DNA of 64,000 bases from Eledone cirrhosa (Eukaryota). The stretch covers positions 1 to 64,000 of the forward strand of contig CAXHJY010001527.1 in NCBI GenBank assembly GCA_964016885.1, read 5' to 3'. This document shows positions 18,871-36,444 of the stretch, one piece after another (position 1 is the first letter of the stretch; every line of letters starts with the position of its first letter). Made by a program: the position numbers and the translations under genes. The notes beneath the pieces are model-generated. The model was not told where the DNA came from and searched no databases. It saw only the letters and a list, made by a program, of their open reading frames with translations.

Positions 18871-21056
18871 ATGGAATATAAATTGAGTGAAAAGGTTAAA
18901 TGCGAAACACAATCGAAAATGTTTAGTATTCCTGGTGAGATGACAAAGGTTGGAGAAGAGAAACCATATCACTGCAATATCTGGTAAATCATAGTACCTT
19001 AACTACTCACAAAGTTATACATACAGGAGACAAGCCATATCACTGTGATATCTGTAGTAAATCATTCTCTCACAGTATTGCCTTAGCTAGTCACAAACGT
19101 ATTCATACATGAGACAAGCCATATCATTGTGAGTTCTGTGGGATATCATTCTCTCAGTGTAGTGTCTTAACTAGCCACAATCGTATACATAGTGGAGAGA
19201 AGCCATATCACTGTGAGATCTGTGGTAAATCATTCTCTGTAAGTAGTAACTTAACTACCCACAAACGTATAAATACTAGAGAGAAGCCGTGTAACAGTGA
19301 TATCTGTGGCAAATCATTCTCTATAAATAGTACCTTAACTAGCCACAAATGTATAGATACTGGAGAGAAGCCATATCACTGTGATATCTGTGCTAAATCA
19401 TTCTCTGGGAAAGGTAGCCTAAGTAGTCACAACCATTTACATACAGGTGAGAAGTCATATCACTCTGATATCTGTGGTAAATCATTCACTAAAAATAGTA
19501 CCTTCACGTCTCACAACCATTTACATACAGGTGAGAAGCCATATCACTGTGATATCTGTGGTAAAACATTCCCTCAGAGTGATGCATTAACTAAACACTT
19601 ACGTACCCATACAGGAGACAAGCCACACCACTGTGACATCTGTGGTAAATCATTCTCTCAAAGTAGTCACTTAACTAGACAAAAACGTATACATACAGGA
19701 CAGAGGGCATATTACTGTGATATCTGTGGTAAATCATTCAATACAAGTAGTACCTTGACTACACACATGCGTATACATACAGGGGATATGTCATATCACT
19801 GTGATATCTGTGGTAAATCTTTCTCAGTAAGTAGTAACTTAACTAAACACAAACGTATACATACAGGAGACAAGCCATACCACTGTGATATCTGTGGTAA
19901 ATCATTCTTTGATAGTAGTAGCTTAACTAGACACAAACGTATACATACAGGAGAGAAGCCATATCACTGTGATATCTGTGGTAAATCATTCTCTGATAGT
20001 AGTAACTTAACTAGCCACAAACGTATACATACAGGAGACAAGCAATATCACTGTGATATCTGTGGTAAATTATTCTCTCAAAGTGCTTCATTAACTAAAC
20101 ACTTATGTACCCATACAGGAGACAAGCCATATTACTGTGATATCTGTGGTAAATCATTCTCTGTAAGTGGTCACTTGACTAGTCACAAACATATACATAC
20201 AGAAGACAAGCCATATCACTGTGATATCTGTGGTAAATCATTCTCTGTAAGTGGTAAGTTAACTAGCCACAAACGTATACATACAGGAGAGAAGCCATAT
20301 CACTGTGATATCTGTGGTAAATCATTCTCTGATAGTAGTACCTTAACTAGACACAAACGTACCCATACAGGAGACAAGCCATACCACTGTGATATCTGTG
20401 GTAAATCATTCTCTGTAAGTTGTACCTTAACTAAACACAAACGTATACATACAGGAGACAAGCCATACCTCTGTGATATCTGTGGTAAATCATTCTCTCG
20501 AAGTAGTCACTTAACTTCCCACAAACATATACATACAGGAGACAAGCCATATCACTGTGATATCTGTGGTAAATCATTCTCTGTAAGTGGTAAGTTAACT
20601 AGCCACAAACGTATACATACAGGAGAGAAGCCATATCACTGTGATATCTGTGGTATATCATTCTCTGATAGTAGTACCTTAACTAGCCACAAACGTACCC
20701 ATACAGGAGACAAGCCATACCACTGTGATATCTGTGGTAAATCATTCTCTGTAAGTTGTACCTTAACTAAACACAAACATATACATACAGGAGACAAGCC
20801 ATACCTCTGTGATATCTGTGGTAAATCATTCTCTCGAAGTAGTCACTTAACTTCCCACAAACATATACATACAGGAGACAAGCCATACCACTGTGATATC
20901 TGTGGTAAATCATTCTCTGAGAGTAGTTCCTTAACTAGCCACAAACGTATACATACAGGAGAGAAGCCATATCACTGTGATATCTGTGTTATATCATTCT
21001 CTGGGAAAAGTAGCCTAACTACTCACAAACTCATACATGCAGATGAGAAATCTTAA
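18871..21056 (+). pseudogene. Poly-C2H2 zinc-finger gene, 5'-disrupted (~25 fingers; the last 15 are open in ORF 19755-21056)
   Basis: Start ATGGAATATAAATTGAGTGAA mirrors MENKLSE of the right copy. Deletion in finger 1 (~18983), TGA in a linker (~19110), several broken Cys/His. TTTCAG acceptor at 18693. A shorter protein from ATG 19767 is possible. Confidence 0.85.
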
Positions 21057-21449
21057 TGCATTGACATCAGAGATAAATCCTCTCAAAATTGTGAATTAAT
21101 GAGAATACAAATATATATCAGTGTAATATCTATGGTAAATCATTCTCTTTCAATGTTACATTAACTTCACACAAACATATACAGGTGGGAAGCCATATCA
21201 CTTTGATATGTTTGGAAAATATATCTTTTAATGCAGCAATTTAACTAAATATATGCATAGATGAGGGAAACCATATCATCATCATCATCATCATTTTACA
21301 TCCACTTTTCCCTGCTTGCAAGGGTGGGATGGGTCCTATTCAGCAAAGCATCTCTTCACTTGTCACGGTTCTTCGTCATCTCCACCGTGAGCTTCAAAGG
21401 TCTGCTCTCGCCACCTCCACCCATGTAAATAAATTTCTAATTTTGGTTT

Positions 21450-34665: not shown

Positions 34666-36444
34666 TTAAGATTTCTCCTCTGCATGTATGAGTTTGTGAG
34701 TAGTTAGGCTACTTTTCCCAGAGAATGATATACCACAGATATCACAGTGATATGGCTTGTCTCCTGTATGGGTACGTTTGTGTCTAGTTAAGGTACTACT
34801 TCGAGAGAATGATTTACCACAGATATCACAGTGGTATGGCTTGTCTCCAGTATGTATACGTTTGTGGCTAGTTAAGGCACTACTTTGAGAGAATGATTTA
34901 CCACAGATATCACAGTGGTATGGCTTGTCTCCTGTATGGGTACGTTTGTGTCTAGTTAAGGTACTACTTAGAGAGAATGATTTACCACAGATATCACAGT
35001 GGTATGGCTTGTCTCCTGTATGTATACGTTTGTGGCTAGTTAAGGCACTACTGAGAGAGAATGATTTACCACAGATATCACAGTGGTATGGCTTGTCACC
35101 TGTATGGGTATGTTTGTGTCGAGTTAAGGTACTACTATCAGAGAATGATTTACCACAGATATCACAGTGGTATGGTTTGTCTCCTGTATGTATACGTTTG
35201 TGGGAAGTTAACTGACTACTTTGAGAGAATGATTTACCACAGATATCACAGTGGTATGGCTTGTCACCTGTATGGGTACGTTTGTGTCTAGTTAAGGCAA
35301 TAGTTTCAGAGAATGATTTACCACAGATATCACAGTGGTATGGCTTGTCTCCTGTATGTATATGTTTGTGTCTAGTTAAGTGACTACTTTGAGAGAATGA
35401 TTTACCACAGATGTCACAGTGGTATGGCTTGTCTCCTGTATGGGTACGTAAGTGTTTAGTTAATGCATCACTTGGACGGAATGTTTTACCACAGATATCA
35501 CAGTGGTATGGCTTGTCTCCTGTATGTATACGTTTGTGGCTAGTTAAGTTACCACTTTGATAGAATGATTTACCACAGATATCACAGTGGTATGGCTTGT
35601 CACCTGTATGGGTACGTTTGTGTCTAGTTAAGTTAACACTTTGATAGAATGATTTACCACAGATATCACAGTGATATGGCTTGTCTCCTGTATGTATACG
35701 TTTGTGGCTAGTTAAGTTACCACTTTGATAGAATGATTTACCACAGATATCACAGTGATATGGCTTGTCTCCTGTATGTATACGTTTGTGGCTAGTTAAG
35801 TAACTACTCTCAGAGAATGATTTACCACAGATATCACAGTGATATGGCTTGTCTACTGTATGTATATGTTTGTGTCTAGTTAAGGTACTACTTTGAGAGA
35901 ATGATTTACCACAGATGTCACAGTGGTATGGCTTGTCTCCTGTATGGGTACGTTTGTGTCTAGTTAAGTTACCACTTTGATAGAATGATTTACCACAGAT
36001 ATCACAGTGATATGGCTTGTCTCCTGTATGTATACGTTTGTGGCTAGTTAAGTTACCACTTTGATAGAATGATTTACCACAGATATCACAGTGGTATGGC
36101 TTGTCTCCTGTATGGGTACGTAAGTGTTCAGTTAATGCATCACTTCGAGGGAATGTTTTACCACAGATATCACAGTGATATGGCTTCTCACCTGTATGTA
36201 AATGGTTGTGACTAGTTAGGTTACTTTTCTCAGAGAATGATTTACTACAGATATTACAGTGATATGGTTTGTCTCCTGTATGTATAACTTTGTGAGTAGT
36301 TAAGGTACTACGTATATTGAATGATTTACCACAGATATTGCAGTGATATGGTTTCTCTTCTCCAACCTTTGTCATCTCACCAGGAATACTAAACATTTTC
36401 GATTGTGTTTCGCATTTAACCTTTTCACTCAATTTATTTTCCAT
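34666..36444 (-). CDS. C2H2 zinc-finger protein, 20 tandem fingers, no recognisable effector domain (592 aa, single coding exon)
   Basis: Open frame: ~32-aa N-terminus then 20 x CxxC-x12-H-x3-H with TGDKPY linkers; TTTCAG acceptor upstream at 36622-36624 (-). Confidence 0.92.

Follow-up and report, generated by a model that had tools for sequence, protein, structure and literature searches.

Finger turnover in an intact tandem C2H2 zinc finger gene and its broken twin in Eledone cirrhosa

The window analysed here is a 64,000-nucleotide stretch of Eledone cirrhosa DNA (assembly GCA_964016885.1, contig CAXHJY010001527.1, positions 1 to 64,000). It contains two arrays of 84-bp C2H2 zinc finger (ZNF) units, which lie on opposite strands and face each other within an inverted segmental duplication of about 14 kb. 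The locus is a tandem C2H2 gene with a broken twin; it behaves as a coding minisatellite and is not PRDM9. The finger frameworks of the two arrays differ less than the flanks of the duplication, whereas the DNA-contact codons differ far more, and finger number and finger order are also different.

These observations are probably best explained by duplication, repeat recombination and selection acting together. The ancestor would have been an animal tandem C2H2 gene without a detected effector domain, which was copied in the inverted duplication. Unequal exchange and short gene conversion among the 84-bp units would afterwards have added, removed and spliced fingers, and mostly old contact codons would thereby have been dealt into new fingerprints. 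Diversifying selection would preserve the new fingerprints; meanwhile the left copy gained a frameshift.

An intact gene and its broken twin

The window is AT-rich animal DNA with many microsatellites, and both ZNF genes are located inside the duplication, the arms of which show 5% divergence and many private insertions. The coordinates are collected in Table 1; the finger units are numbered L01-L25 in the left array and R01-R20 in the right array.

The right copy has a stop-free frame of 592 codons. It is a tandem C2H2 gene (at least five CX2CX12HX3H fingers with TGEKP-type linkers), with 20 such fingers matched by PF00096 and PF13465, and the CCHH ligands are intact in all 20. Four of these fingers carry the helix YQSGNL and one more carries YQSVNL. 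Neither this protein nor that of the long interspersed nuclear element (LINE) in the right arm was present in an exact database look-up. Vertebrate ZNFs dominated the best 120 of 5,684 protein matches, among which no cephalopod name occurred, and the top identity was 55% among the 150 representatives listed in a representative-protein search. The leader with the first finger gave one match among three candidates and no close relative. The protein-cluster (Atlas) search returned generic ZNF clusters only, with no match for the leader, and no paper came up when the literature was searched for the framework motif of the fingers.

The left copy is broken. Compared with the right copy, its first finger has a 2-bp and an 11-bp deletion, which lead to a stop at 18985-18987 after 38 codons; a further in-frame TGA is located at 19110-19112. 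Zinc ligands have been lost in L04, L05, L07 and L09, which are four of the 24 full-length left fingers, with five ligands lost altogether. The frame from the orthologous ATG is therefore not open. The earlier note on this DNA missed the frameshift, the TGA and the ligand losses. The pair is an intact gene compared with a broken gene, and therefore two working re-targeted proteins are not demonstrated by it. The right protein itself would probably differ from its ancestor in DNA-binding specificity.

Divergence and turnover of the finger units

The flanks of the two copies differ at 262 of 5,149 nucleotides (5.1%; identity 94.9%). The exon parts outside the array (untranslated region (UTR), leader, last finger and proximal 3' sequence) differ at only 12/587 (2.0%; Fisher p = 5e-4 against the flanks), including 1/95 nucleotides at the N-terminus and 2/92 in the last finger with the tail. 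The finger units were either aligned, with three different gap costs, or paired with their best match irrespective of order, the best-match values being lower bounds. Their total divergence was 6.5-8.1%, with 2.6-3.6% in the frameworks and 26-33% in the contact codons (helix positions -1, 2, 3 and 6). The divergence of the whole array is thus slightly above the flank value, whereas that of the framework is below it. In the colinear alignments, the last finger alone keeps its contact set (1 of 12 or 16 pairs), and only three of the 18 right contact fingerprints are present among the 21 left ones.

The per-codon diversity is maximal at the four contact positions; positions -2, +9 and +10 vary too. 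Differences from the majority unit in the framework average 7.9 in the end fingers and L02-L10, compared with 2.0-2.5 in the array cores.

These values bear on several claims of the earlier note. Arrays that diverged far faster than their flanks were recovered for the contact codons, the finger number (25 left units and 20 right) and the finger order, but not for the array as a whole. The near-identity that it saw in the N-terminus, last finger, UTRs and flanks holds for the exon-proximal parts and fails for the flanks. It had also described the units as homogenised except at the contact codons; the diversity peak at these codons is real, but the end fingers and L02-L10 are diverged and three further positions vary. 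Its statements that the recognition helices are mostly different, that the left array has a four-finger block duplication and that the right array repeats YQSGNL fingers were all borne out. Moreover, per-position diversity, which it had proposed as a check, is highest at the contact positions.

The turnover of units can be followed in some detail. The left blocks L16-19 and L20-23 differ at 3/336 nucleotides, and the block duplication is therefore younger than the duplication of the locus, with its 5.1% divergence in the flanks. In the right array, R04 is identical to R10, and the pairs R17/R19, R05/R09, R06/R12, R16/R18 and R03/R11 are only 1-4 nucleotides apart. The distance between units plotted by lag has a period of four in the left array and a period of two in the right array. 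The end fingers are orthologous (L25/R20 differ at 2/84 nucleotides and L08/R03 at three); whereas the middle has been rewritten. Finger R02 is likely a chimera, the start of which matches L02 (1/36 nucleotides differ) and the end of which matches L06 (1/36). It suggests an in-frame removal of decayed 5' units from the right copy.

The core units are mosaic. The four-gamete test failed at 26 of the 45 informative site pairs in R04-19 (minimum number of recombination events, Rm, 4) and at 6/28 in the left array (Rm 2), to which recurrent mutation may contribute. The core units cluster modestly by array (nearest-neighbour statistic Snn 0.76 vs 0.48, p = 0.012; framework alone p = 0.043). Synonymous divergence of the framework (pS) is 0.09-0.13 in the cores, which together with the identical unit pairs and the Rm of 2-4 fits concerted evolution. 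The minisatellite-like turnover that had been claimed earlier is thus supported by the recent block duplication, the mosaic units and the conserved end fingers.

Most right contact codons (71/80) occur at the equivalent position on the left, and 22 of the 31 right alleles are shared, with 9/31 private. As so few complete fingerprints are shared, the new fingerprints appear to be mainly recombinations of pre-existing codons rather than products of numerous fresh point mutations.

Selection at the contact codons and other explanations

Events were counted as the minimum number of mutations per codon column. This was used instead of a tree-based ratio of nonsynonymous to synonymous substitution rates (dN/dS) because the units are mosaic, a problem raised in PMC5519329 (here and below, statements on published work refer to the available part of each article). 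In R04-19, nonsynonymous events per site in the contact codons were 4.4 times the non-contact synonymous value (p = 6e-4) and 3.1 times that of all synonymous sites (p = 0.003); for all 20 right fingers the latter ratio was 2.2 (p = 0.014). The nonsynonymous to synonymous ratio (N/S) of the framework was 0.25-0.36 on the right (core 0.25) and 0.79 in L11-24. Among near-identical right units (at most four differences), 9 of 17 differences fall in the contact codons, which make up 14% of the sites, and nearly all of these are nonsynonymous. A neutral simulation was also performed with a closed array of 16 units and neutral contact codons, in which 3,471 of 8,146 runs were retained by matching the synonymous count. 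The 18 nonsynonymous contact events observed were reached in none of the 3,471 (simulated mean 3.2-4.2).

The share of amino-acid diversity that falls on the contact positions (the statistic of Baker et al.) is 0.46 for the right array, 0.59 for its core and 0.44 for the left array, compared with a control median of 0.28. The controls were 94 of 112 named ZNFs, those with at least eight tandem fingers; these were cross-species matches chosen by their likeness to the query, and nine unnamed matches had been dropped. Five of the 94 reach the value of the right array: a gastropod SET-bearing ZNF, a lizard PRDM9 and three ZNF180 orthologues. The check at the contact positions that the earlier note had suggested (per-position diversity or dN/dS) gave an excess of amino-acid diversity there. 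These results argue for diversifying selection at the contact codons.

The highest share among the controls (0.63) belongs to P0017, which is named a ZNF724-like protein of the gastropod Gigantopelta aegis. It combines a SET domain with an array of homogenised fingers, and has the appearance of a molluscan PRDM9 with a generic name.

CpG hypermutability was also considered as a source of the contact diversity and was rejected; few contact alleles involve CpG. The observed/expected CpG ratio is 0.27-0.31 in the arrays (19035-21050 and 34672-36351), which is lower than in the 3' flank (0.51) or in the LINE of the right arm and block A (0.69). The low value of the arrays may reflect gene-body methylation, the codon composition being uncontrolled in this comparison.

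Several results weigh against selection at this locus. Synonymous events are also raised in the contact codons (6 at 2.4 sites vs 11 at 13.1, p = 0.04), and this core value was reached in 151 of the 3,471 neutral runs. The N/S within the contact codons is 0.9-1.1, and therefore a dN/dS above 1 depends on the synonymous rate of the framework. This ratio of about 1 fits old alleles under diversifying selection or import from other paralogues, the two being inseparable here. The simulated array was closed, so that an import of contact codons from other paralogues was omitted. The broken copy shows an equal contact excess in L11-24 (3.05 times), and the three ZNF180 orthologues have the same contact share (0.46-0.47), the statistic being therefore not specific.

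Other points concern the turnover itself. In a tree of 44 units (L01 excluded), the clustering of left and right labels was not significant (52 of 500 shuffles as low), and framework distances within arrays (3.46) and between arrays (3.71) are nearly equal. This weak clustering suggests that much of the unit homogeneity is older than the duplication. Moreover, the broken left copy has its own recent block duplication, and the non-coding finger relics 3' of both stops also vary in copy number; turnover therefore does not require function.

These points favour neutral repeat instability with family-wide conversion, in which the framework would be uniform across the ZNF family, the contact codons would be imported from paralogues and no selection would act at the locus. 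This account draws on the raised synonymous diversity in the contact codons, the 22 of 31 alleles in common with the left array, the similar framework distances within and between arrays, and the turnover in the broken copy and the relics. However, the closed neutral model fails, differences between near-identical right units are concentrated in the contact codons, and imported diversity must still be maintained somewhere in the family. We regard neutral instability as rather unlikely, although it is the strongest competitor of selection combined with duplication and recombination.

The left gene allows a further explanation. Its decay is restricted to L02-L10, where 22 private framework amino-acid changes were counted in nine units, compared with three in the 14 units L11-24 and one in R04-19. 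No stop and no ligand loss were found in L10-L25, whereas neutral evolution from the duplication onwards would predict 2.3-5.8 of them (P(0) 0.10-0.003). This points to a recent death of the left copy or, less likely, to a continued translation of its last 15 fingers from the ATG at 19788. In the latter case, the locus would have been restarted as a 15-finger protein from this in-frame ATG (or from 19767), with the decayed 5' fingers untranslated; the decay ends just at these two ATGs. However, there are nine ATGs between the predicted acceptor and 19767, the recent duplication and conversion reduce the number of independent units, and the framework N/S of L11-24 (0.79) is far from that of the right core (0.25). 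Recent death accounts for the same data, and a restart seems improbable.

Assembly errors might also be considered for the second copy, the block duplication or the left frameshift, because 84-bp tandem arrays are difficult to assemble and the locus was judged from the assembly alone. However, the arms are 5% divergent with many private insertions, the duplicated blocks are not identical, the sequence contains no N, and the left copy carries three independent lesions and five ligand changes; an artefact is very improbable.

Gene model, surroundings and relation to known systems

A block of about 750 bp occurs at the start and the end of each arm, giving four copies (A-D). Only four AG/GTAAGT donors are present on both strands of the window, one in each block. 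In the block core, 1-5 of about 197 nucleotides differ between any two copies, whereas the A/D and B/C types are 11-12% apart in the 5' part. Blocks A and D are likely to be a promoter with a non-coding first exon, which would be spliced to the acceptors at 18693 and 36622. Blocks B and C may belong to the next tandem gene, which has been cut off. The blocks were also considered as long terminal repeats or composite-transposon ends; the alignment shows no clean shared termini, and the donor sites and the conserved core therefore favour the reading as promoter and first exon.

An effector domain was looked for in several ways. Among the best 25 of 37 Pfam rows there were finger-type matches alone and no effector family, and the 32-residue leader matched no Pfam family at E up to 1. 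The tblastn search over the window used the N-terminal parts of four SET-bearing and five KRAB-, SCAN-, BTB- or ZAD-bearing proteins (no FiNZ query was included). It matched the finger repeats only, except for two short matches at E 0.9 or worse, and no SET match was found. Stops interrupt the ZNF frame in the stretch from the predicted acceptor to the ATG, and none of the ATG frames continues into the donor predicted for the first exon. These results support a gene that is effector-less within the window, as the earlier note had proposed. They also speak against a final exon of a PRDM9-like gene with upstream KRAB or SET exons. Such a gene would fit the contact share of 0.46-0.59, which lies within the PRDM9 rows in Table 1 of Baker et al. 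(0.414-0.684), and the controls closest in contact share are the SET-bearing proteins P0017 and P0115; with the frame closed upstream of the ATG and no SET match, this possibility is hardly credible.

Table 1. Coordinates of the two ZNF copies, the duplication arms and associated features in the window
Feature	Position	Strand	Remarks
Left arm of the inverted segmental duplication	11675..25841	+	blocks A and B at its ends
Block A, likely promoter with non-coding first exon (left gene)	11675..12446	+	donor 12363; putative function
Predicted 5' UTR, left coding exon	18695..18870	+	best predicted acceptor AG 18693-18694
Left ZNF gene, broken paralogue	18871..21056	+	ATG 18871; 25 units; compared with the right copy
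Left array	18964-21050	+	25 units including the broken first unit
Left 3' open part	19788..21056	+	in-frame ATG, candidate start; 422 aa; 15 intact fingers L11-L25
Recent four-finger block duplication (L16-19 / L20-23)	20211..20882	+	3/336 nt different
Non-coding finger relics 3' of the left stop	21444..21747	+	78-bp tandem of decayed units, ~3.9 copies
Block B, older paralogous block copy	25096..25841	+	donor 25804; no ZNF exon downstream
Spacer inverted repeat	27357..27867		nested; inner arms of 120 nt (98% complementary) around a loop of 67 nt; outer arms of 79 nt (92%)
Block C, mirror copy of block B	28168..28926	-	donor 28252
Right arm of the inverted segmental duplication	28215..57576	-	includes 14.9 kb without left counterpart
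Non-coding finger relics 3' of the right stop	34074..34300	-	match the left relics; 3 units, other copy number
Right ZNF open reading frame, intact	34666..36444	-	ATG 36444, stop 34666; 592 aa = 32-aa leader + 20 tandem fingers
Right array	34672-36351	-	20 units
Finger R02, likely chimera	36184..36267	-	start matches L02, end matches L06
Predicted 5' UTR, right coding exon	36445..36620	-	predicted acceptor AG 36622-36621
Block D, likely promoter with non-coding first exon (right gene)	56779..57576	-	donor 56863; putative function

The right arm contains a stretch of 14.9 kb (37915-52785) without left counterpart, which includes a LINE, 204-bp satellites and other repeats. The LINE (37918-41741, minus strand) is located in the predicted intron of the intact gene. 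It has an unbroken frame of 1,070 codons with endonuclease, reverse transcriptase and a PHD-like finger (Pfam), and its (GAT)n tail ends in a TA microsatellite. We take it to be of the RTE type; its protein has at most 57% identity among the matches listed (best 120). Its 5' end adjoins the satellite, of which two blocks (about 5 and 4.4 copies, 98% identical) with a short unique stretch between them occupy 41778-44222, upstream of the LINE. Broken reading frames at 46189-48112 (minus strand) presumably represent a Penelope-like reverse transcriptase and endonuclease; Pfam gave no real match for them (46420-48112). They lie in a region (44300-50078) with the inverted repeat pairs 44300-44616/47964-48284 and 48455-49058/49422-50078.

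Two tandem repeats are specific to one arm each: a 52-bp unit in 15 copies (25863-26774), which truncates block B, and a 115-bp unit in 2.8 copies (56404-56728), which adjoins block D. Direct copies of an element of about 600 bp (2591-3194 and 62765-63374, 97% identical) lie within long TA microsatellites and encode a single C2H2-like motif followed by a stop; they probably represent the 3' fragment of a LINE with TA repeats as its target. The spacer inverted repeat is single-copy within the window and is possibly a fold-back centre or a miniature inverted-repeat transposable element. A 1.7-kb interstitial telomere-type array of (CCCTAA)n (9463-11137; variant hexamers 176 TAACCC, 40 CAACCC and 36 CAACTC) stops about 540 bp outside the outer end of the left arm. 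Speculatively, this array and the spacer hairpin could mark a fold-back duplication healed via telomere addition.

Some features of the locus are known from other systems. In mouse KRAB zinc finger protein (KZFP) clusters (Kauzlaric et al. 2017, PMC5363842), the ZNF-coding segment is the least conserved part of the duplicated unit. Single-finger tandem duplications and the repetition of blocks of 2-7 fingers were also described there, as were related genes in opposite orientation and arrays that are fixed or degenerating. The present locus shares the paralogue pattern of these clusters, but yielded no KRAB exon; a non-coding upstream exon is predicted for it, and its repeat content does not appear to be of mammalian type. 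The PRDM9 pattern was defined by Baker et al. (2017, PMC5519329) as similar 84-bp units with diversity at positions -1, 2, 3 and 6. The present arrays have both properties and a contact share in the same range; however, no KRAB, SSXRD or SET was found, and there is no link to recombination. The PRDM9 comparison made in the earlier note was too narrow as a sole precedent, because the same pattern of paralogues has been published for the mouse clusters.

Primate KRAB zinc finger genes commonly diverge through the duplication and deletion of fingers (Nowick et al. 2011, PMC3126818), and changes of finger number are rare in their pseudogenes; whereas the broken left copy has a recent four-finger duplication, which may be older or younger than the frameshift. 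The hemipteran ZF271-like / APEZ genes (Panfilio et al. 2019, PMC6444547) are finger-only, with 3-45 repeats, tandem clusters, pseudogenes, varying arrays, high turnover and no KRAB. They resemble this locus in being finger-only and clustered, but belong to another lineage, and unit-level concerted evolution is not described in the available part of that article. Octopus and other invertebrate ZNFs were reported to vary at their base-contacting residues, with high entropy there in octopus, and to have predicted binding to transposable elements (Wells et al. 2023, PMC10547256). Surveys of cephalopod C2H2 genes (PMC12513265, PMC9068888 and PMC12988792) deal with expression and the size of the family, and unit turnover does not feature in their available parts. 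The cephalopod expansion (PMC12513265, PMC9068888 and PMC10547256) comprises large lineage-specific clustered families, and within-gene unit turnover is likewise not described in those parts. A literature search (subscription papers and supplements were outside its scope) found no unit-level account of such a locus in cephalopods and no account of a non-PRDM9 minisatellite array for them. A targeting of transposable elements or other repeats by the right protein would be a guess from this literature.

As a single pair of loci with one broken partner, it extends a phenomenon known from mouse KZFP clusters and PRDM9 with a clean effector-less example, and opens no new one. The inverted duplication provides an internal clock (5% flank divergence) for gauging finger turnover. 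The pair also gives a warning that PRDM9 is not the only source of PRDM9-like array statistics, and that conversion confounds dN/dS in arrays of this kind. As a tentative and so far doubtful generalisation, effector-less invertebrate ZNF genes might be coding minisatellites of PRDM9 grade, in which standing contact codons would be recombined into new fingerprints while neutral divergence reaches no more than a few percent. Such a family would be a store of DNA-binding specificities generated by recombination, the arrays would vary in length between alleles, and a frameshifted copy might persist by restarting at an internal ATG. If recombination of old contact codons were the main source of fingerprints throughout a large invertebrate ZNF family, this would account for the fast target changes of finger-only proteins.

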